Part shown: positions 4,253 through 54,075 of the stretch, piece by piece
How positions within the stretch are numbered: the stretch's first letter is position 1
Layout of the letters: each line of letters begins with the position of its first letter
Source: a virus
Taxonomy: Duplodnaviria; Heunggongvirae; Uroviricota; Caudoviricetes
IMG/VR virus record: IMGVR_UViG_3300021168_000019
Coordinates: 26,672 to 90,671 of that record
Direction: 5' to 3' (one strand)
Length of the DNA stretch: 64,000 bases
Translations under genes and position numbers: made by a program
The notes under the pieces: generated by a model
What the model saw: only the letters and a program-made list of their open reading frames with translations
Told to the model about the DNA's origin: nothing
Databases searched by the model: none

Positions 4253-5554
4253 TTATTTTTGTTTTCTGGTGTTACCTACGCTTACCCAAACTACAGGAAT
4301 GTGAGAAAGTACTATAAGGCTTGCAAATATAGTAATAGATAGTCCGTTCAAATTAACTTGACTGTTATCTGCTATGGTGCCATATATGTTTACACCTAAT
4401 CCATTGCTGCCGTTAACTTGGCTCAAGCTGAGTCCACCTGTACCCCATAAATCTGTTGAATTTCCTAGCACATAACTAGTAGACCAACTTCCTACTGTGA
4501 TAGATTTTGGTGTACCAATAGGTGTACCTGCCACAGTAAGTTGTATATCCAATGTACAGGATGTTCCTGATGCTATGCCAGTACTGAATGCTACTTCCAC
4601 TCCGTTGACTACTGATCCTACAGGTAGAGCGAACCCTGAATCAGTTCCCTCAAGGGTCTGTAGTTGATTGGGTGGAGTTGGAGTGCCGCCGCCCGGTAAT
4701 GTATACACGATGGCGAATCCCGCGTAACCTACTCCACCATAATACCCACCAATGCCTGCTAAAGTTGCTTCGATGCCTAGTTGAAAAAAGGCTGTATTTA
4801 AAATGGCTAGGTTCGTTCCTAGAGTACCTGTAACTTCTGCCGTGCTGTTCATAAGAAATGAACTAGGACTTCCTGCCCCTGAATAAAATAACTTTAATGA
4901 AATGAACGATCCAGAAACTGAAGTTGATAAGGCGTTAGCTACTCCATATATACCTACTACAGTTGCTCCGGCAGGTAAAGTAGGAATTGTAGCAAATGGA
5001 CTAGTAGTAGAAATTTGTGGATTAAAAGAACCTCCACCAAATCCGGCGCATCCTCTATCAAATACACTATATGCACATGGTTCATGTAGTTGATTAGAAG
5101 TAACAGTACCCCCTCCGGTCCAAGGCCCTTCACAGGCAGCGTATACCACGAATTGACCGGGACCGGGAGTAAAAGCACCGTCAATGTTCTGCGCGAATGA
5201 ATATGTGGTAGTAGGAGTTGCTGTGCCTGCGTCTGTTGTAGTAGAAATATTAGTGTGTGTGTAATTAGCTGAGAACGAAGTTGTACTTAATCCGCTTGAA
5301 AGAACCACAAGACTAACACCATTCAAAAATGTACTATTTACCATGTTCCCCATTATTACAGTCTGTCCTGCTACTAATGGGGTGAATTGTGTCGTGGTGA
5401 CAAAGGATACTACGTTTGAAGATATCGTAACTGATTGTACAATAACTGTACTGGTAGAGCCTATTCCAGAACCAGTTGCCTCAGTAGGATTCTGCCAAGG
5501 AACACCGGTTCCCGCACTTACAAGAGATGTAGGAGATTCTGTATAGGTTGCCAT
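4253..5554 (-). CDS. putative tail fibre protein (T/S/G-rich)
   Basis: 433 aa; extreme Thr/Ser/Gly composition, no signal peptide; in fibre gene cluster. Confidence 0.45.
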   Translation of the reverse strand: MATYTESPTSLVSAGTGVPWQNPTEATGSGIGSTSTVIVQSVTISSNVVSFVTTTQFTPLVAGQTVIMGNMVNSTFLNGVSLVVLSSGLSTTSFSANYTHTNISTTTDAGTATPTTTYSFAQNIDGAFTPGPGQFVVYAACEGPWTGGGTVTSNQLHEPCAYSVFDRGCAGFGGGSFNPQISTTSPFATIPTLPAGATVVGIYGVANALSTSVSGSFISLKLFYSGAGSPSSFLMNSTAEVTGTLGTNLAILNTAFFQLGIEATLAGIGGYYGGVGYAGFAIVYTLPGGGTPTPPNQLQTLEGTDSGFALPVGSVVNGVEVAFSTGIASGTSCTLDIQLTVAGTPIGTPKSITVGSWSTSYVLGNSTDLWGTGGLSLSQVNGSNGLGVNIYGTIADNSQVNLNGLSITIFASLIVLSHIPVVWVSVGNTRKQK

Positions 5555-15280: not shown

Positions 15281-15481
15281 CGTCCCCTCCCAAGGATGAA
15301 GCTGGCGCTTTTGTAAGGGAAAAGCACCTGAAAACCCGGCTTTTGTGGGGTTCTTGAGATGACTCTAAGCGGTCACGTTTACACGTACACGCTTGGAAAA
15401 AGTACCCACCCATCTCGGCTTACGGACGTGATATACCCTCTCGTTTAATATGTCCCGGTTATCTGGCACATATCCATATTT

Positions 15482-25518: not shown

Positions 25519-28225
25519 TCAAGAATCTGAAGATAAATTACTATCTTTCTTAGATAACACATTTGATTTCGGATTTGACGTTGAAACTACCCCTGTTTCT
25601 GATTTTTATTGGAGACGACTTCGTACAATACAGTTTGGAAACTCAAAAGAACAGTATGTAATTGATCTTCTAGACTACTGTGACAGAGATAGCGAGTTAC
25701 TACATAATTGTCAAGGTGAGTACGGTAAACATCTCTGGAAAGCTCCAAAATTACAAGCACTTTTAGAAAAACTTAAAAAGTATTTGATTTCATCAGATTG
25801 GACCAAAACCGGCGTAAACGTTGGATTTGAGTACGAGTGTCTGTATTGGTTACTAGGGATACGTTCATCTGGTTACTACGATTGCATGTTAGCAGAAAAA
25901 TGCATATACGCAGGCATGGGAGGAAGTGCTTCATTAAAGAATTATGAATACTTTAGTATGTCCTCTATGTTCGAACGCTATTTTGGAATAACCATTGACA
26001 AAGCACTACAGACATCATTTAATTTAGATGACGATCTTTCTGATGCTCAATTCGAATACGCCGCACTTGATACGCGTACTCCATTGGCTATAAAGGCTGT
26101 TCAAAATCTTATAGCAAGTGGAGAGACTATTGAATCTCTAAAAGCCAAGGGAAAGCCGAAGCTGGCAGATTATCTATACTATTTGGACCGGATTATTCTA
26201 GGCGATAATCTTCATGAAGTCATTCAGATTGAAAACGAAGCACTCGGCGCTTTTATTGACATGCATGTGCACGGCGAACGTCTAGACCGTGAAAAGTGGC
26301 TTGCGCGTGTACAGAAGGCCAAGGATAAACTAGTAGCTGTTATTAAAGAGTTGGACAAGATTTTCCTCCCGTGGGTAGGTTCAAAGTTAGATGCCGTAGA
26401 CGATGACACGATTGCCGCACTTGAGATACAGTGGAAGTCGTTGCGTGATAATCCTACTGAGGCCGAGATTGAGCTAAAGCTTGCTATTTCACAGGCTAAC
26501 AGAGAGATTAAAAAGCTAATTAAACAGAACCTCGACATTGGAGAACTGCAACTTGCGCGTGCTGAAGCCGAAATTAAACTCAATCAGCTACAAGATGTAA
26601 GACTAGAGCAGAAAGAAATCATCAAGAAGAAGCATGGCGACCTGAGTAAAAAACGCACAAAGATTAGAAATCTTGCTGCCGACTGTGAAGGTGAAGCTCT
26701 TATTAACTATGGGTCAGATGCACAATTGATGCACTGTCTCAGAGAGAACATTAAGAAGCTTGAAAAGCTAGAAGGCATGGATGACGAGATTCTTGAGAAG
26801 TATGAATCTATTCCTGTCATGAAGCTTATCCGCGAGTACCACGGGTTATCGAAAGATGTGGGAACTTACGGCGATCAATGGGCGACTCAATGGACAACTC
26901 ACCCCTGTAAAGAGGAAGGATGGCTTCACCCCGGCGACGGTAGACTCCACTGCGAGTTCAACCAATATGATGCCGGTACTGGGCGAAGCAGTAGCTCTAA
27001 GCCAAATGCACAAAACCTTCCCCAAGATAAGGAAGTGCGTGGATCGTTCATTGCGGACCCGCCGAACGAGGACATTCGGATTAGTGATTGTTGCGAGGCT
27101 GATACGTATGAAGACGAATGGAACGGTGTAACTTACAATCTTATTTGCTCCAAATGTGAAAAACAATGTACTACACACGCTGAAGAATACGTACTCGTTA
27201 CGGCTGATATGTCCGGTGCCGAGTTGCGTATCATTGCCGATGACGCGAACGATGAGGTATGGATCGGTGCTTTCCGCAGAGGCGAAGACGTTCACTCAGT
27301 AGGAACAGAACTTTTGTACGATGAGAAGTGGCACAAGGCTCAGTATAAAGGACAGGAGTTAAAGAACAAGAAGGGAGAATTAGTACCATATTGGTGCGAG
27401 TATTATAAGCTTCATACTGAGGAAACCGTCAAGAAGAATCCATTGTGCACGGTTGGTGAACCAATGCGCCGAAAGTGCGAGTGTCCTGAGCATAAGCAGA
27501 TGCGTGATAATAACAAGGCCACTAACTTCCTATTGGCGTATGGTGGAGGGCCGGGTGCTCTTGCCGCCGCTATCAAACAGGCTCAGAAGATTGCTAAAGA
27601 ATTAATGGCGCTTCATGAGCATAAGAATCCTCGAATCTGGGCTTATCTGGAGAAATCTGGAAAAGATGCAGCGAGGGACTTCAGGGCATTTGATTTATTC
27701 GGCAGACGTAGATTGTTACCTGAGCCGACAAACGCCCGTGCAAGAGATAACTGCAAGGAGTGGAACGAAAAGCAGCTTAGACTTACTCCTGAAGATGCTG
27801 AGAAGAATGTTGCCATCTTTACGCAAGTGAAGGGCCGCAAGCCTACTCAAAGTGAGATGTTCGATTTAACTCACAGACAGCCTACTCAGGATGAGGTTAG
27901 CCGTAGTTACTTCCAAATGACAAGTCGTGTTTCTCGTCAAGGAAAGAATACGCGCATTCAGGCAACTAATGCAAGTATTGCTAAGAAAGCGATGGGATGC
28001 GGGTATTGTCCCAATGGAAAGCTGTTCTTGTGGCACACACTTCCACTCTACCGCGCGAAGCTAATTAAGTTCGTGCATGACGAATTGGTCGTACAATGTC
28101 CTAAGCAGCATGGTGAGAAGGTAGCCGCTCTCATTGGTGATGCTTTTAAGAGAGCAGCGGCTATTAAGATGAAACGTGTCGTGATGGAATTCGATTATTC
28201 AATCGCAAGTTATTGGAAGAAATAA
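25451..28225 (+). CDS. family A DNA polymerase with 3'-5' exonuclease domain
   Basis: 924 aa; ExoI FDVETT, ExoIII YAALDT, motif A DMSGAELR, motif B RDNNKATNFLLAYGG, motif C VHDELVVQ. Confidence 0.85.
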   Translation: MIIDERELKPFVANPPMNVLRISQESEDKLLSFLDNTFDFGFDVETTPVSDFYWRRLRTIQFGNSKEQYVIDLLDYCDRDSELLHNCQGEYGKHLWKAPKLQALLEKLKKYLISSDWTKTGVNVGFEYECLYWLLGIRSSGYYDCMLAEKCIYAGMGGSASLKNYEYFSMSSMFERYFGITIDKALQTSFNLDDDLSDAQFEYAALDTRTPLAIKAVQNLIASGETIESLKAKGKPKLADYLYYLDRIILGDNLHEVIQIENEALGAFIDMHVHGERLDREKWLARVQKAKDKLVAVIKELDKIFLPWVGSKLDAVDDDTIAALEIQWKSLRDNPTEAEIELKLAISQANREIKKLIKQNLDIGELQLARAEAEIKLNQLQDVRLEQKEIIKKKHGDLSKKRTKIRNLAADCEGEALINYGSDAQLMHCLRENIKKLEKLEGMDDEILEKYESIPVMKLIREYHGLSKDVGTYGDQWATQWTTHPCKEEGWLHPGDGRLHCEFNQYDAGTGRSSSSKPNAQNLPQDKEVRGSFIADPPNEDIRISDCCEADTYEDEWNGVTYNLICSKCEKQCTTHAEEYVLVTADMSGAELRIIADDANDEVWIGAFRRGEDVHSVGTELLYDEKWHKAQYKGQELKNKKGELVPYWCEYYKLHTEETVKKNPLCTVGEPMRRKCECPEHKQMRDNNKATNFLLAYGGGPGALAAAIKQAQKIAKELMALHEHKNPRIWAYLEKSGKDAARDFRAFDLFGRRRLLPEPTNARARDNCKEWNEKQLRLTPEDAEKNVAIFTQVKGRKPTQSEMFDLTHRQPTQDEVSRSYFQMTSRVSRQGKNTRIQATNASIAKKAMGCGYCPNGKLFLWHTLPLYRAKLIKFVHDELVVQCPKQHGEKVAALIGDAFKRAAAIKMKRVVMEFDYSIASYWKK

Positions 28226-29103: not shown

Positions 29104-29340
29104 ATGGCAGGATTTTTTAGTAACCTATTGGGCGCGGCTAAGGCCGATGGTTCCGCGTTCGTAAAGCTAGCAGAAGCCGATTCTTCAGAGCTAGAAGCGA
29201 AGGGCCGGATCGTTGCGCTTGATGCGGCACATTCAGTAAAGACTGAAGTGGTAGACTTTCTCGAAAAGGAAGTTGACCGCGTTCACGCAACTGCTGATGC
29301 ACTTAACGCACGTTTTAAGTCAGTTCTGGGAAAGCTTTAA
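29104..29340 (+). CDS. hypothetical small protein
   Basis: start at internal Met after GAGGAG RBS (29092-29097). Confidence 0.35.
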   Translation: MAGFFSNLLGAAKADGSAFVKLAEADSSELEAKGRIVALDAAHSVKTEVVDFLEKEVDRVHATADALNARFKSVLGKL

Positions 29341-29406
29341 CAAGTACGCACGTATGAAGCGCAGCCGCGCTATCGGACGCGGGTTCGATTCCCGCCATCT
29401 CCACCA
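29341..29406 (+). ncRNA. ssrA: tmRNA (ssrA) acceptor piece of a circularly permuted two-piece tmRNA
   Basis: GGACGCGGGTTCGATTCCCGCCATCTCCACCA 29375-29406 matches canonical tmRNA 3' end (T-arm plus acceptor 3' strand plus CCA); partner 5' strand GGGGATG lies 92 nt downstream. Confidence 0.8.
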
Positions 29407-29497
29407 ATTTTTGTATCAAGCGGTTAGCCGTATGTAAGAACTAAATACGGACTAATGAAGGTAGAGTTGGTTCTTCTGTAGACTCTGCTCTAAAAAT

Positions 29498-29800
29498 GGG
29501 GATGCCAAGGTTTCGACGGTAGATGTTGAATGTTGTTAGCAGACGTGCAGGTAGACGACTAACCTTAACAGCGTAACCTAATAAATGGCGCAACCATTTA
29601 TGACGAGATGATTAACGGACTTCAGGTGGCAACATCTGAGCGCGTTAGTGGCCTCGTGATGGCCTAGTAATAGGACCGGGGTCTGACCCACCTAGCAACA
29701 GAAAGGGTCATAAGACTGAGGCAGAGGGAATACTATCAAACCCAGTATGAGTCGCTACCCTTCAATGGGTGGGACGAGCAAGAGTACGAAACTCGGTAGT
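29498..29800 (+). ncRNA. ssrA: tmRNA coding piece (5' acceptor strand GGGGATG, D-analog TTCGACGG, tag ORF, pseudoknots); 3' boundary approximate
   Basis: GGGGATGCCAAGGTTTCGACGG 29498-29519 resembles canonical tmRNA 5' end; GGGGATG pairs with CATCTCC (one G.U); candidate tag frames end in TAATAA or TAGTAATAG stop clusters; ~470 nt without any ORF. Confidence 0.65.
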
Positions 29801-45250: not shown

Positions 45251-45372
45251 AGTAACGTTGACATACCGGTAGCACAATAGTATAGTTGGTACAAGTAAGC
45301 AAACAAGGAACCGAACAAGGAGAATGTATGCTAACAGGCAGGGAAAGCCTGCCCCTTAACTGCTAACGGAAA

Positions 45373-45464
45373 TGGGTTAAGGAGAATGCTAGTAGACGCG
45401 ATATAGTGGCCCGATTAAAGACGGCAGCACTTGATTGTCCTACTTACTAGCATTCTCCTTAACC
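45373..45464. repeat. 21-bp perfect inverted repeat (GGGTTAAGGAGAATGCTAGTA / TACTAGCATTCTCCTTAACCC) with 50-nt spacer
   Basis: arms 45373-45393 and 45444-45464; lies in 5' leader of gene starting 45478. Confidence 0.7.
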
Positions 45465-45477
45465 CATTGGAGAGATA

Positions 45478-47739: not shown

Positions 47740-47768
47740 TTGACAACCGAAACAAGCTGTGGTACTAT
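47740..47768 (+). promoter_or_regulatory. sigma70-like promoter with extended -10
   Basis: TTGACA -17- TGG-TACTAT. Confidence 0.55.
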
Positions 47769-48770: not shown

Positions 48771-48846
48771 GCATACGTGGTATAATGGTCATTATCTCTG
48801 CCTCTTAAGCAGAAGGATGTTCGTTCAAATCGAGCCGTATGCACCA
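48771..48846 (+). tRNA. tRNA-Lys(CTT)
   Basis: perfect acceptor GCATACG/CGTATGC, anticodon stem TCTGC/GCAGA loop CTCTTAA, T-arm GTTCG-TTCAAAT-CGAGC, ACCA. Confidence 0.75.
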
Positions 48847-48847
48847 T

Positions 48848-48923
48848 GCACGTTTCGTATAGTGGCTATTATACCGGGCTTTTAACCCGATTGACGTTGG
48901 TTCGAATCCAGCAACGTGCACCA
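48848..48923 (+). tRNA. tRNA-Lys(TTT)-like
   Basis: acceptor GCACGTT/AACGTGC, D GTAT/ATAC, anticodon loop CTTTTAA, T-arm GTTGG-TTCGAAT-CCAGC, ACCA; D/anticodon junction 1 nt short. Confidence 0.6.
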
Positions 48924-48933
48924 AAGGAGAATT

Positions 48934-49164
48934 ATGAAATACCTTATTGCAGGATTAGCGCTTGTTTTGGGAATAATCGTATTAGTTGTAGTCATTGGAC
49001 TACTTCTAGCATTCCCCGTGATGTGGCTTGTAAACTTTCTGTTTGCACCTAGCGCGTTGCTTGTAGTCTTTGGCACTGTCAAGCTTGGCTTTTGGCAGGC
49101 ATACGGGTTGTTGGTACTTGCAGGATTGTTGTTCAAAAGTTCCAGCACAACTGGTAGCAAGTAA
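48934..49164 (+). CDS. small membrane protein (2 TM)
   Basis: start MKYLIAG after AAAGGAGAA; hydrophobic helices. Confidence 0.4.
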   Translation: MKYLIAGLALVLGIIVLVVVIGLLLAFPVMWLVNFLFAPSALLVVFGTVKLGFWQAYGLLVLAGLLFKSSSTTGSK

Positions 49165-49173
49165 CCCCCTATC

Positions 49174-49250
49174 CCCCGGTTAGCTCAACCGGCTAGAGCG
49201 TTCGCTTGATAAGCGAGAGGTTGGTGGTTCAAACCCATCACTGGGGACCA
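49174..49250 (+). tRNA. tRNA-Ile(GAT)
   Basis: acceptor CCCCGGT/ACTGGGG, D GCTC-AACCGGCTA-GAGC, anticodon stem TTCGC/GCGAG loop TTGATAA, T-arm GGTGG-TTCAAAC-CCATC, ACCA. Confidence 0.75.
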
Positions 49251-49259
49251 AAGGAAACT

Positions 49260-49781
49260 ATGCAGCATTTAACTCAAGACGAAATAAAGCAACTGCTCCG
49301 ACAGGTACAGAAGCCGCGCCAAAGGTTGATGCTTAAGGTTGGATTCTTGCATGGACTGCGCGTGTCGGAGCTAATCGGACTGACTAAAGAGGACATCCGT
49401 GACGGCTATGTGAAGTGTCAAAGGCTGAAAGGGTCACTTAAGACCATACAGCCATACGTATCGAGTACGGACCCGGAGCTAGACGAAGCAACCGAACTGA
49501 AAGCGTTATTTGGTACTCTCAAGAGCGGTGAGCGGTTGTTTCCTATGACCCGTTTTGGAGTCTACAAGCTGATGGAACGGGCCGGAGAAAAAGCTGGCCT
49601 ACCTAAGCACAAGGTTCACCCGCACGTCTTAAAGCATTCTTGCGCGATGGCTACAATCAAGGTAGCAGGAATCGAAATGGTACGGCAGTATTTGGGCCAC
49701 AAGACAATCAGTTCAACCGGAGAGTACTTGCGCGAATCTGATGAGACGGCGAGTAAAGCAGTAGCAGGCGCGTTCTCTTGA
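49260..49781 (+). CDS. minimal tyrosine recombinase (catalytic domain only; integrase or invertase)
   Basis: 173 aa from MQHLTQDE after AAGGAA; box I GLRVSELIGL, box II HPHVLKHSCAMATI (K where the HxxR Arg is expected), LGHKTISSTGEYLR with Tyr. Confidence 0.6.
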   Translation: MQHLTQDEIKQLLRQVQKPRQRLMLKVGFLHGLRVSELIGLTKEDIRDGYVKCQRLKGSLKTIQPYVSSTDPELDEATELKALFGTLKSGERLFPMTRFGVYKLMERAGEKAGLPKHKVHPHVLKHSCAMATIKVAGIEMVRQYLGHKTISSTGEYLRESDETASKAVAGAFS

Positions 49782-49806
49782 CATTCAAAACTGACCGTGG
49801 TACTAT
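49778..49806 (+). promoter_or_regulatory. sigma70-like promoter with extended -10
   Basis: TTGACA -17- TGG-TACTAT. Confidence 0.55.
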
Positions 49807-49814
49807 GGAGGAAT

Positions 49815-50210
49815 ATGACAAAGCTGACGAAGAAATCATCGCACAAGCGCATCATCGCTACATGGCTGGAAGCGCTTAGAAGTGGTGAGTACAAGCAAAC
49901 GAAGGGAGCACTCCACACAAAGAAAGGCAAGAAAGAGGGATTCTGTTGCCTTGGAGTACTCTGTGACTTGGCCGTTAAAGCCAAGGTTATCCCTGAGCCG
50001 TTAACTCTCGAAATAGGTGGGATACAGGAATTTAGATATGAAGGTTACAGTGGTAACCTTCCTGAAGAGGTAATGAAATGGGCAGGACTTGAAGATAGTA
50101 GCGGCAGTTACGAGGGCGATAGTCTCGCTGACCTAAACGACAATGGTAAGAAGTTTACAACTATTGCCAAGATTATCGAGTCCCGGCCTGAAGGGTTGTT
50201 TAGGGAGTAA
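49815..50210 (+). CDS. hypothetical protein, tandem paralog A (CCLGVLCDLAVKA motif)
   Basis: GGAGGAA RBS. Confidence 0.4.
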   Translation: MTKLTKKSSHKRIIATWLEALRSGEYKQTKGALHTKKGKKEGFCCLGVLCDLAVKAKVIPEPLTLEIGGIQEFRYEGYSGNLPEEVMKWAGLEDSSGSYEGDSLADLNDNGKKFTTIAKIIESRPEGLFRE

Positions 50211-50212
50211 CA

Positions 50213-50629
50213 ATGGAACTGACTAAAGCAACCAAGGCTTCCGATGTGCGAAAGGCATGGACGGAAGCCTTGGATAGTGGGAACTACAAGCAGGGTACTA
50301 TCTTTCTTAGGCAGTCTGGTACATTCGGCGAAGAGTTTTGCTGCTTCGGCGTACTATGTGACCTAGCTGTCAAGGCGGGTGTAATTCCTGAACCGTTAAC
50401 TGTTGCTTCAGACGATGCCGACGCGCCTAGTTTTACCAAGACGGCGTATCAGTACGGGCCGGGGCGAACACAAAACTTTCACCTTCCCGACCCCGTAAAA
50501 GAATGGGCTGGATTTGGTACTGAACGCGGTCAATTCTTTGTAGCTGATTTGGAAGAACTAAACGATACTGGCAAATCGTTTAAGCAAATTGCCAAGATAA
50601 TTTCTGAGGAGAGGGAAGCGTTCGAGTAA
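50213..50629 (+). CDS. hypothetical protein, tandem paralog B
   Basis: WTEALDSGNYKQG...FCCFGVLCDLAVKAGVIPEPLT colinear with preceding gene product. Confidence 0.4.
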   Translation: MELTKATKASDVRKAWTEALDSGNYKQGTIFLRQSGTFGEEFCCFGVLCDLAVKAGVIPEPLTVASDDADAPSFTKTAYQYGPGRTQNFHLPDPVKEWAGFGTERGQFFVADLEELNDTGKSFKQIAKIISEEREAFE

Positions 50630-51047: not shown

Positions 51048-51075
51048 TGAATGGCATTCACGGCGGTTAGTCCTC

Positions 51076-51104
51076 TTGACAGCCGCCATCTTTTGTGCTA
51101 TAAT
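51076..51104 (+). promoter_or_regulatory. sigma70 consensus promoter with extended -10 (leaderless transcript likely)
   Basis: TTGACA -17- TGcTATAAT; ATG 51111 is ~7 nt after -10. Confidence 0.55.
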
Positions 51105-51110
51105 GATCCT

Positions 51111-51383
51111 ATGAAGAATAAAAAAAGCATCAAGCCATTCCGTAAGCCGGTCCTAGCAGTATCTACCGCAGCATTCACTCATTTAACCGAGTCCAATGCG
51201 CTCCGAGGAGGAGAGGGCGCTTTCAAGATTCGGGTACCGATTTACAACAATCCGTATAATGACAATCCCCTGAAGTCTGCGTGGATTCGTGGATACAAAC
51301 GGGCAGAGCGGCAGTTCTTCGAAAGCGTAAAGAATTCTCAACGCGTCCAAGCAACTATTGGATTTGAGGAAGTAGAAGCATAA
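51111..51383 (+). CDS. hypothetical basic protein
   Basis: start MKNKKSIKPF at predicted transcription start. Confidence 0.35.
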   Translation: MKNKKSIKPFRKPVLAVSTAAFTHLTESNALRGGEGAFKIRVPIYNNPYNDNPLKSAWIRGYKRAERQFFESVKNSQRVQATIGFEEVEA

Positions 51384-52381: not shown

Positions 52382-53527
52382 GTGGGTCAAGGGGGTGGGA
52401 AACTGCCCCCCATTTTTAAGGAAGAAATGGACAACGAGTTAGATCAGTTTATAAAGAAGTTCGGAAAGTTTACTGAGAGCTATTGGTTTTATGATAAGAC
52501 CATTGAGTTAAGGTATGACCCAAAGGATCACGTATACCTGTTAGTTACCCCTGACGGCCTAGAAGTTCAAGATGGCGTGACGACGATCTGCCACATCATG
52601 GACAAGAGCAACATCCTCATTCCGTGGGGGTGTAAAATGATGGGGCAGAAGCTTAAAGCTAGTCTTGAGCCGCATCTTGAACCTGATAGAGTAAATGGTA
52701 CTAGTAATGAATACATCATTTATGAGAGTGACTTTGACGAACTGCTAAGACTATCAAAGTCTGCCCACAAAGATAAGCTAGAAGACGCCGGAGAGGTAGG
52801 ACACAAGGCGCACGATTGGATCGAAACGCACATTAAGAGTTGCATCGCTCATAAAGATGACGATACAACTTACGCTATAGATGTTCCAAGAGGAGACGAG
52901 CGGGTAACAAACTGTACCGTTGCATCCCTTCACTGGATGGCGAACCACAACGTTAGGTGGCTTGGTACTGAGCGTAAAGTATACAGTAGAACGTTTAAAT
53001 ATGCTGGTACTATGGATGGACTGGCGTTCGTTGACTCATGTAACGATCCGAAGTGTTGCCGACAGCCGTTCAAGGATCACCTAGCTATCATTGACTGGAA
53101 GACTAGTAACTACCTGTACGTGGAATACCTGCTACAAACCGCCGCATACAAGCAAGCTTACCAAGAGGAAACTGGTGGAAGTATTGAGGACATCTTCATT
53201 ATCAGACTTGGTAAAGAAGATGGAGAGTTTGAGGCTTGGCACGTAGAGCAAGATTTATCTGAAGCCGCATGGAGCGCTTTTGTACGGGCGTTAGAATTAA
53301 GCCGATCAATGGTTGAAGTCAACCGATTAGTAGACGAAGCCAAGGACGAACGTAAAGCGATCAAGAAAGCTGAAAAGAAAGCGGAGAAAGAAGCACAGCT
53401 AGCAATCAAATGTGCATACGCTGATAAGTACAAGGGAGTGCGTTCTCCTACTTGTAACAACGGGAAACCATGTGTTTCCTGTTTAAATAAATACCAAGAA
53501 GTTCAACTTGGTAAGGAAACAAAGTGA
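52382..53527 (+). CDS. PD-(D/E)XK nuclease (RecB/Cas4-like exonuclease)
   Basis: GLAFVD, IIDWKTS (D/ExK), QTAAYKQAY (QxxxY), Cys cluster CNDPKCC. Confidence 0.55.
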   Translation: MGQGGGKLPPIFKEEMDNELDQFIKKFGKFTESYWFYDKTIELRYDPKDHVYLLVTPDGLEVQDGVTTICHIMDKSNILIPWGCKMMGQKLKASLEPHLEPDRVNGTSNEYIIYESDFDELLRLSKSAHKDKLEDAGEVGHKAHDWIETHIKSCIAHKDDDTTYAIDVPRGDERVTNCTVASLHWMANHNVRWLGTERKVYSRTFKYAGTMDGLAFVDSCNDPKCCRQPFKDHLAIIDWKTSNYLYVEYLLQTAAYKQAYQEETGGSIEDIFIIRLGKEDGEFEAWHVEQDLSEAAWSAFVRALELSRSMVEVNRLVDEAKDERKAIKKAEKKAEKEAQLAIKCAYADKYKGVRSPTCNNGKPCVSCLNKYQEVQLGKETK

Positions 53528-54075
53528 AAATTGATTTAATTGGTTGTAAATTTGGAAGATTTGTGGTACAATATGAGGTAGAAAGGGCTAATAAGCACAG
53601 AAGATGGCATTGTCTCTGTGAATGCGGGACTGAAAAAGATGTATTACAGAGCAGTCTCATTACCGGACGAACACAAAGCTGCGGATGTTTAGGAGCAGAG
53701 AGAAGCCGCAAAAGGATGCAACTAAGGCACGATAGTGGTCAGTCAAGGAAGGTAAATTCTGGCCGCAATGATTTTCTTCGAAGCTATAAGCAGAATGCTA
53801 AAGTTAGAAATTTGAACTTCGATTTAACAGATTCTCAATTTGATGTTCTAATTACTGGGAATTGTGTTTACTGCGGTGAGCCACCTTCGGAACGTATAGC
53901 AAGTAACAATGTTATAATTGTAAATGGAATTGACAGATTGAATTCTACTAAAGGTTATACAACTGATAATTGTGCATCATGTTGTAAGTATTGTAATCTC
54001 ATGAAGTTAGAGATGAGTCCCAAAGAATTCGTGGATCACTGCACAAAAGTATATAGGAGACAGAGCATAGTATGA
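53524..54075 (+). CDS. HNH endonuclease
   Basis: 183 aa; CVYCGEPP...NGIDRLNSTKGYTTDNCASCCKYCN. Confidence 0.6.
   Translation: MKIDLIGCKFGRFVVQYEVERANKHRRWHCLCECGTEKDVLQSSLITGRTQSCGCLGAERSRKRMQLRHDSGQSRKVNSGRNDFLRSYKQNAKVRNLNFDLTDSQFDVLITGNCVYCGEPPSERIASNNVIIVNGIDRLNSTKGYTTDNCASCCKYCNLMKLEMSPKEFVDHCTKVYRRQSIV

Follow-up and report, generated by a model that had tools for sequence, protein, structure and literature searches.

The closest described relative of the gene considered here is gp84 of Tunturiibacter phage Tunturi_3 (PP885686), a 97.6-kb podovirus of Acidobacteriota with lytic infection cycles, whose describers merely mention the integrase annotation and did not study the gene (PMC11924767). 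The gene itself lies in a 64,000-nucleotide stretch, hereafter called the window, of the IMG/VR virus record IMGVR_UViG_3300021168_000019 (positions 26,672 to 90,671), and encodes a tyrosine recombinase (YR) of 173 amino acids (aa). Tunturi_3 gp84 (XOB77265.1, 182 aa), annotated as 'integrase' by homology only, is the orthologue of the window YR, with 42% identity and the motif HALKH where the window protein has HVLKH. Both occupy the same place upstream of genes for an exonuclease, a Cas4-like nuclease and an RNA ligase, which in Tunturi_3 is the middle of a replication arm of about 57 kb; unlike the window gene, gp84 has no adjacent tRNA gene and possesses its own promoter, of leaderless geometry.

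The catalytic domains of the Xer recombinases (XerA, XerD and XerH) gave the best sequence and structure matches to the window YR (4a8e, E 3e-11) and have in common with it the motifs GLRVSEL, HxL(R/K)H and LGH as well as the tyrosine. The YR differs from Xer in that the core-binding domain is missing, that it scores far below the equivalog cut-offs, that a lysine stands at the position of the second catalytic arginine (Arg-II) and that no dif-like site was found. FimB and FimE, at about 200 aa, resemble the YR in consisting of the catalytic domain only, but here too the YR is set apart by its lysine at Arg-II, by the lack of any invertible element found and by a phage-replication context as opposed to a fimbrial switch. 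Arg-II contacts one non-bridging oxygen and the tyrosine oxygen (PMC2943603) and shares with the tyrosine the highest conservation in these enzymes; across more than 12,000 YRs it is arginine in 99.1% and lysine in 0.5% (PMC2943603, Table 1). Replacement of this residue by lysine has been described for Cre R292K, which recombines in vivo as well as in vitro and, among single mutants, accumulates covalent intermediate to the highest level, and similar behaviour was seen for the corresponding XerCD mutants and for vaccinia topoisomerase IB (TopIB) R223K, which keeps about 10% activity; all carry the same change at the same position as the window YR and are active but ligation-defective, so that the covalent intermediate accumulates (PMC2943603). 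These are, however, engineered single mutants of arginine enzymes, whereas the lysine of the window YR is the evolved norm of its family, where it may be compensated by other changes.

The YR-like atypical relaxases MpsA/MpsB of SGI1 and TcpM of pCW3 have the YR fold and have been proposed to nick rather than to recombine, and MpsA/MpsB have their DNA-binding module encoded as a separate protein (PMC6414798). MpsA differs from the window YR in keeping Arg-II (R250), in being larger and in needing oriT and conjugation machinery, while the window YR has no conserved adjacent partner gene and belongs to a phage replication arm, not to a conjugative context. The integrase of the lytic cyanopodovirus Syn5 was the top structural match to the YR in BFVD (E 1.8e-7), and nudivirus VLF-1 was matched as well (E 3.3e-4). 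Like the window YR, the Syn5 integrase and the VLF-1 proteins of baculoviruses and nudiviruses are YR-fold proteins of lytically replicating viruses, but they are longer (262-367 aa) and only 14-25% identical in sequence. A functional parallel would lie with VLF-1, which has roles in late transcription and in the processing of DNA.

The window gene was found to encode a tyrosine-recombinase catalytic domain that is intact and stands alone. It begins with an ATG preceded by the ribosome-binding site AAGGAAA, which ends 3 nt upstream, and PF00589 (Phage_integrase) aligns with residues 3-161 over profile positions 2-170/172 (score 73.4 bits, cut-off 27.1 bits; E 2.5e-20). As this profile spans nearly all 173 aa, there is no room for a core-binding or an arm-binding domain; held against the 'simple YR' layout of a core-binding plus a catalytic domain, the protein lacks the N-terminal half of the plan, all of its length being used by the catalytic domain. 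Its relatives begin at the same Met, directly behind a promoter. PHROG 216 and PHROG 1, both named 'integrase', also match. The original prediction, an earlier note made from the sequence alone, had described a catalytic-domain-only protein of this length with a box I Arg, His, LGH and C-terminal Tyr, and the alignments bear this out. The gene and its catalytic codons are as follows.

49260..49781, plus strand: YR gene, catalytic domain only, 173 aa (PF00589; PHROG 216 and PHROG 1; AF2 model; dN/dS)
49359..49361, plus strand: codon of Arg34 (Arg-I, in GLRVSEL, aligned with XerD 'glrvsel'); the codon of Glu37 lies 3 codons downstream
49428..49430, plus strand: codon of Lys57 (catalytic Lys of the beta-hairpin, in RLKGS), aligned with XerD K172 in 'GKGNK', the register being derived from the alignment
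49623..49625, plus strand: codon of His122 (His-II), from alignments
49632..49634, plus strand: codon AAG of Lys125, which takes the place of Arg-II in the HxxR motif (HVLKH) and aligns with the Arg-II residues of XerA and XerD
49698..49700, plus strand: codon of His147 (His-III, in LGH), from alignments
49725..49727, plus strand: codon of Tyr156 (nucleophile), from alignments and the AF2 model

When the protein was compared by phmmer with the solved structures of XerA (4a8e, 5hxy) and XerD (1a0p, 5dcf), its 'phvlKhs' stood opposite 'phvlRha' and 'phqlRhs', respectively. It was therefore determined that Lys125 truly occupies Arg-II, and the mis-registration against which the original prediction had cautioned did not apply. 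The other six residues of the seven-residue YR signature (R34, E37, K57, H122, H147 and Y156) are all present. An AF2 model built on 26 relatives reached a pLDDT of 92 and a pTM of 0.85, and the Foldseek matches listed for it were all to catalytic domains of YRs (probability 1.0, TM-scores of about 0.7), XerH and XerA among them at about 0.7. Over its whole length the model can be superposed on the catalytic fragments of the P2, HP1 and lambda integrases taken in isolation (target-normalised TM-score about 0.7), and a conserved C-terminal helix (residues 161-171) follows Tyr156.

The lysine proved to be a family trait. A total of 629 homologues of the YR were found, and in 26 relatives of 60-84% identity K125 was invariant, as were R34, E37, K57, H122, H147 and Y156. 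When 1.84 billion cluster representatives were searched with a profile, 155 clusters were obtained at E <= 1e-30, almost all of them 165-200 aa in length; among the best 150 of these 155 representatives the Arg-II column held lysine in 134 and arginine in 15, while the remaining catalytic residues were kept in about 95-99% (Arg-I, R in 144 of about 146; Glu-I, E in 143 of about 146; Lys-beta, K in 144; His-II, H in 141; His-III, H in 140 and W in 5; Tyr, Y in 144). A sister group from Terriglobia metagenome-assembled genomes (MAGs), 43-44% identical to the YR, reads HCLRH. Comparison with the 84%-identical relative gave a ratio of nonsynonymous to synonymous substitution rates (dN/dS) of 0.10, a sign of purifying selection. 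To judge from these alignments, lysine is the usual second basic residue of an enzyme family under selection, and the gene is not a decaying integrase. The original prediction had treated the lysine as a peculiarity of this gene, which the family-wide count contradicts; its expectation that the exchange would alter catalysis, on the other hand, agrees with the published mutants of other enzymes, Cre R292K and TopIB R223K (PMC2943603). A literature search returned nothing specific on natural recombinases with lysine at Arg-II, on truncated integrases in lytic phages or on the function of this gene. The superfamily domain and its fold are known, and what appears to be new, as far as sequences can tell, is a family in which lysine at Arg-II is the natural norm and the core-binding domain is missing.

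The window belongs to a phage of Acidobacteriota of about 98 kb, a relative of the lytic podovirus Tunturi_3. Its structural genes, among them those for the large terminase (TerL) and the portal, are encoded on the minus strand at 1-23 kb, and the plus strand carries genes for a DNA polymerase, a helicase, an exonuclease, endonuclease VII, the Cas4-like nuclease and two RNA ligases, together with 13 tRNA genes and a permuted tmRNA. TerL is 55% identical to that of Tunturi_3, against 42% for the YR; the links to that phage are at the protein level only, and no nucleotide match was obtained when the 5-kb region was compared with GenBank phages by megablast. The identical YR protein was present on 11 contigs, the longest of 98,604 bp, and relatives of both the YR and the terminase occurred on many contigs of 90-99.6 kb, a range therefore taken as the genome size of the lineage. 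For the assessment of core status, 21 IMG/VR loci were fetched via the Cas4-like gene, so that the YR did not serve as bait. A YR was present in all 20 assessable loci, located 2.5-6.8 kb upstream of the Cas4-like gene on the same strand, with an HxLKH motif in every case and 45-69% identity; the 21st locus, with only 3.3 kb of upstream sequence, was left out of this count. YR identity broadly tracked that of the Cas4-like protein, which indicates vertical inheritance. The YR gene therefore belongs to the core of an Acidobacteriota podophage lineage with genomes of about 90-99 kb, in which it is inherited vertically and lies in the replication and recombination arm. Gene order in the window and its relatives is conserved from orf136 through a small hydrophobic open reading frame (ORF), the YR, DUF8296 (variable), orf110 and orf74 to the exonuclease, endonuclease VII (variable), the Cas4-like nuclease and RNA ligase.

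The features immediately surrounding the gene, and the corresponding promoters of its relatives, are listed below.

47740..47768, plus strand: consensus-like sigma-70 promoter TTGACA-N17-TG-n-TACTAT (10/12 matches, extended -10)
48771..48846, plus strand: tRNA-Lys(CTT) (ARAGORN; Rfam RF00005), kept in L042
48848..48923, plus strand: tRNA-Lys(TTT) (ARAGORN; Rfam RF00005)
48934..49164, plus strand: small ORF for a hydrophobic protein of 76 aa between tRNA-Lys(TTT) and tRNA-Ile, with homologues in L002, L046, L047, L049, L050 and L052
49174..49250, plus strand: tRNA-Ile(GAT), complete, CCA encoded, ending 9 nt before the YR start codon (ARAGORN; Rfam, 61.6 bits); most relatives lack it at this position
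49778..49806, plus strand: next consensus-like promoter, its -35 hexamer overlapping the YR stop codon (repeat family D5; promoter scan)
L001 5940-6003 and L003 650-714, and also in L046, L047, L048 and L050: leaderless-type promoters upstream of the YR gene

The promoter at 47740-47768 likely drives a unit comprising orf128, orf136, the two tRNA-Lys genes, the small ORF, tRNA-Ile and the YR, and neither promoter nor terminator matches were found between it and the YR; no intrinsic terminator was detected at 47-52 kb of the window. The end of the YR transcription unit is marked by the promoter that overlaps its stop codon. For the small hydrophobic ORF, absent from the original prediction, conservation upstream of the YR extends to many relatives. 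In six relatives the YR has its own promoter, TTGACA-N17-TAnnnT-N6-ATG, of consensus sigma-70 type and leaderless geometry, and the corresponding slot in the window is occupied by tRNA-Ile and a Shine-Dalgarno sequence. The promoter type suggests early expression by the host polymerase. Three near-consensus extended -10 promoters on the plus strand (47740-47768, 49778-49806 and 51076-51104) split the region into short units, and the last of them matched at 12/12 positions.

Taken together, these sequence data and the analogy with known mutants suggest that the YR is probably an active, non-integrative core enzyme of the phage. The original prediction had raised a different possibility, namely that of a lysogeny integrase acting on a host tRNA-Ile or tRNA-Lys gene, with the adjacent phage tRNA as attP. 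The three tRNA genes on which that possibility drew are genuine, scoring 58-62 bits with Rfam RF00005 (gathering threshold 29) in addition to the ARAGORN calls, and the last ends only 9 nt upstream of the YR, as tRNA genes also abut the YR in L054 and L056. Furthermore, the PF00589 and PHROG matches carry the name integrase, integrase genes of apparently lytic phages are sometimes functional, the Syn5 integrase ranks best among viral structural neighbours, and the lytic behaviour of Tunturi_3 in culture is compatible with lysogeny. The adjacency was, however, not conserved. All three tRNA genes are kept in the near-identical strains L041 and L043, but only tRNA-Lys(CTT) in the 84%-identical L042; L002 has one tRNA-Lys, 1.9 kb upstream of the YR, and Tunturi_3, L003 and L004 have no tRNA gene near it. 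Across the 20 independent loci, tRNA genes occurred within 3 kb of the YR in just eight, always upstream, at varying distance and of differing identity (Ile-GAT, Leu-TAA, Leu-TAG, Lys-TTT, Met and Arg), so that they form a syntenic islet with gain and loss inside an operon and not a fixed attachment site. The window tRNAs are moreover full-length with encoded CCA, lie in the same operon, and are each directly followed by the ribosome-binding site of the next gene. An exact search with the 3' 28-mer of tRNA-Ile (the tRNA-Lys 3' ends were not searched) through 241 million JGI metagenome records matched only L043, the 97%-identical strain, and gave zero matches in IMG/VR; the host attB that had been postulated was not seen for tRNA-Ile in these two collections, the sole match being a sister phage, and the tRNAs appear phage-specific. 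No trace of lysogeny itself was found either. A motif-based scan of 185,579 species genomes gave 36 loci with a YR homologue, all in Acidobacteriota and several of them on large chromosomal contigs (Granulicella sp. L46, 1.65 Mb, 63% identity; a closed MAG of 5.2 Mb). No phage genes were present within 6 kb on either side in these 36 loci except in L007, a short MAG contig with one further window ORF besides the YR homologue, and no tRNA gene lay within about 7 kb of any chromosomal copy. The neighbours were housekeeping genes, insertion sequence (IS) elements or unannotatable ORFs, with no recurrent neighbour beyond IS110-family transposases in five loci. The longest contigs with relatives of the terminase or the YR measure about 99 kb (about 99.6 kb for the terminase), apart from one of 142 kb that carries a related terminase and lies outside the inspected set. 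No prophage of the lineage came to light, and the copies in chromosomes stand as solitary genes. As the core-binding and arm-binding domains are also missing, as the YR stands mid-arm among replication genes, and as the annotation of the whole Tunturi_3 genome holds neither excisionase nor partition genes and gp78 as its sole regulator, a tRNA-directed integrase is considered improbable, and the neighbouring tRNA genes are not thought to be its target. Because tRNAs of different identity abut the YR in three lineages, integron-like capture of tRNA genes upstream of the YR was also considered; no repeated flanking site was found, islet gain and loss fits the pattern, and the idea is hardly credible.

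A second suggestion of the original prediction was a FimB/FimE-type invertase, which would flip a short promoter- or gene-bearing segment of phage or host DNA. Its structural part stands: size and catalytic-domain-only architecture are those of FimB/FimE, and the NCBIfam models NF007370 and NF007371 align almost end to end (YR residues 3-156 to positions 12-176/200; E 7e-16). The solitary chromosomal homologues in the host phylum likewise resemble orphan Fim-like recombinases. The scores of 58.4 and 54.0 bits nevertheless fall well short of the cut-offs of 221 and 222, as do those for XerA, XerC and XerD (81, 63 and 65 bits against equivalog cut-offs of 220, 335 and 330), of which XerA is the best NCBIfam model; the YR is below every curated subfamily threshold, be it for Xer, Fim-type invertases or integron integrases. 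The switch role found no support. No pair of inverted repeats of at least 14 nt bounding a segment was found near the YR or around 10 chromosomal homologues, 9-bp repeats of the Fim type being below the reach of this search; inverted and direct repeat searches of an 11-kb region and of the whole window gave only chance-level pairs (by our own estimate, about three twenty-nt pairs with <=2 mismatches are expected in 64 kb) and one local 24-nt hairpin 4 kb away, and no repeat pattern recurred around the 10 chromosomal homologues. No inversion separates the window from L041 (99.95% identical) or L043 (97%), these being assembled strains, which show majority orientations only, and the sequences flanking the YR are variable. 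An invertase is accordingly regarded as unlikely. A TopIB-like or nicking enzyme of low specificity, acting during phage replication or transcription and forming long-lived covalent complexes favoured by the lysine, would account for the missing core-binding domain, for a core gene in the replication arm and for the lack of a detectable target site. The isolated catalytic fragment of lambda Int has topoisomerase activity, which counts in the same direction. The chemistry is moreover common to YRs and TopIB, and vaccinia TopIB, as noted above, tolerates the change from Arg-II to lysine (PMC2943603). TopIB is, however, defined by an R-K-R-H-Y pentad and an N-terminal clamp and has neither Glu-I nor His-II, which are specific to recombinases (PMC2943603) and strongly conserved in the YR family. 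In addition, the YR has the conserved helix after the tyrosine seen in recombinases that exchange C-terminal segments, Pfam and Foldseek matched no TopIB among the matches listed, and a ligation-slow enzyme would make a poor topoisomerase. A recombinase is the more parsimonious choice because Glu-I, His-II and the C-terminal helix are kept, and the topoisomerase alternative is rather unlikely. Finally, a catalytically dead relic, inactivated by the lysine and retained as a DNA-binding or regulatory factor, might be expected from the near-universal arginine among YRs at large (PMC2943603), but this is highly improbable given that about 95% or more of 150 divergent representatives retain the six other catalytic residues, the Tyr nucleophile included, that dN/dS is 0.10, that Cre R292K shows activity in vivo as well as in vitro, and that lysine and arginine interchange within the family (134 versus 15).

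The explanation preferred here is that the YR is an active recombinase of FimB/FimE size that works on the phage's own replicating DNA and is non-lysogenic; that it is an active, non-integrative enzyme is probable, as stated, whereas the full statement is put forward tentatively, as a plausible account with somewhat less than even prospects. A 3'-phosphotyrosyl link would arise from the attack of Tyr156 on the DNA, with R34, K57, H122, K125 and H147 assisting, and Lys125 would support cleavage while slowing religation, so that by analogy with Cre R292K, XerCD and vaccinia TopIB R223K the balance would be shifted to the covalent complex. DNA would be recognised without a core-binding domain, as in FimB/FimE. 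Early in infection the enzyme would carry out site-specific recombination on replicating phage DNA, where, in the manner of Cre or Xer, it would cyclise DNA or resolve multimers or branched products of replication, with the neighbouring exonuclease, Cas4-like nuclease and endonuclease VII as putative partners in the arm; integration at a tRNA attP during lysogeny would not be its role. The cyclisation or resolution role was favoured because of the core status of the gene, its promoter type and its neighbours, but taken by itself it is possible and somewhat doubtful, and it is the weakest step because no target site was found.

Several observations weigh against this explanation. No lox- or dif-like palindrome (arms of about 11 bp, spacer of 6-8 bp) was common to the window, Tunturi_3 and 14 partial relatives, most of the relatives in this search being represented by 20-kb pieces only. 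There was also no conserved non-coding sequence near the YR, conserved DNA between the window and Tunturi_3 consisting only of coding matches and a stretch behind the portal gene. For a phage that packages from concatemers and encodes recombination functions itself, the need for a resolvase is not obvious, and solitary chromosomal homologues beside housekeeping genes and IS elements fit a role in phage replication poorly. Activity, furthermore, is deduced from conservation and from mutants of other enzymes. A further reading, judged rather unlikely, is that catalytic-domain-only proteins with lysine at Arg-II form a separate functional class of the YR fold, common to Acidobacteriota and their virulent phages, in which religation would be slow by design and long-lived covalent 3'-phosphotyrosyl nicks or end-complexes would be made on replicating DNA, in place of conservative integration or inversion. 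If so, the uses of such proteins could lie in processing or marking replication intermediates or in acting on host DNA soon after infection begins.

Whichever role applies, a natural family with lysine at Arg-II offers a test of ideas on cleavage versus ligation that were derived from mutants. The YR counts, moreover, among the core genes, with host-type promoters, of a soil phage lineage of Acidobacteriota that has genomes of about 95 kb and is abundant yet little studied, and as Tunturi_3 is cultured, the gene is open to experiment. The locus also serves as a warning that a phage 'integrase' beside a tRNA gene is not always a marker of lysogeny.

Some further observations were made around the chromosomal homologues. 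The IS110-family (DEDD) transposase genes lie 1-4 kb from the homologue in L006, L020, L022, L027 and L031, and a truncated IS91-type Y2 transposase is located directly upstream of it in L014. In two Acidobacteriota MAG contigs the lysine-variant YR is close to other YR paralogues (L023, 7260-10690, and L035), and in L023 three YRs stand in tandem, reminiscent of recombinase-in-trio elements.

Among the downstream neighbours of the window YR, DUF8296 (phrog_18067) is represented by two tandem paralogues (49815-50210 and 50213-50629, plus strand) with a common CCxGVLCDL motif. Copy number varies from 0 to 2 among relatives, as does position, and DUF8296 was rejected as an MpsB-like partner of the YR since it is absent from many members of the lineage. 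The conserved small ORF orf110 (51051-51383, plus strand) is always downstream of the YR in the lineage; it contains an NPY...W..GY motif and bears a likeness, by eye only, to ribosome modulation factor. The endonuclease VII or HNH-like ORF (53524-54075, plus strand) is absent from the 97%-identical L043, where window positions 53437-54069 are swapped for about 177 nt, and looks like a mobile nuclease gene.

The strongest inverted repeat of the 64-kb window is the hairpin mentioned above, a perfect 24-nt repeat (45371-45394 and 45445-45468) with a 50-nt loop, whose 5' arm holds AAGGAG followed by ATG; it may occlude a ribosome-binding site. The non-coding stretch past the portal gene measures 37 nt (window 15430-15466, Tunturi_3 4350-4386) and shows 86% identity, although the proteins of the two phages share only about 50%, which makes it a candidate for a regulatory element or an RNA element. 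The permuted, two-piece tmRNA was located at 29314-29758 (plus strand), with an Rfam RF04321 match of 74 bits (gathering threshold 47) at 29344-29587 and an ARAGORN call that includes the tag peptide. Lastly, four relatives of the terminase (P0289, P0295, P0297 and P0326; 1033-1055 aa) contain a LAGLIDADG (PF14528) insertion that is intein-like.

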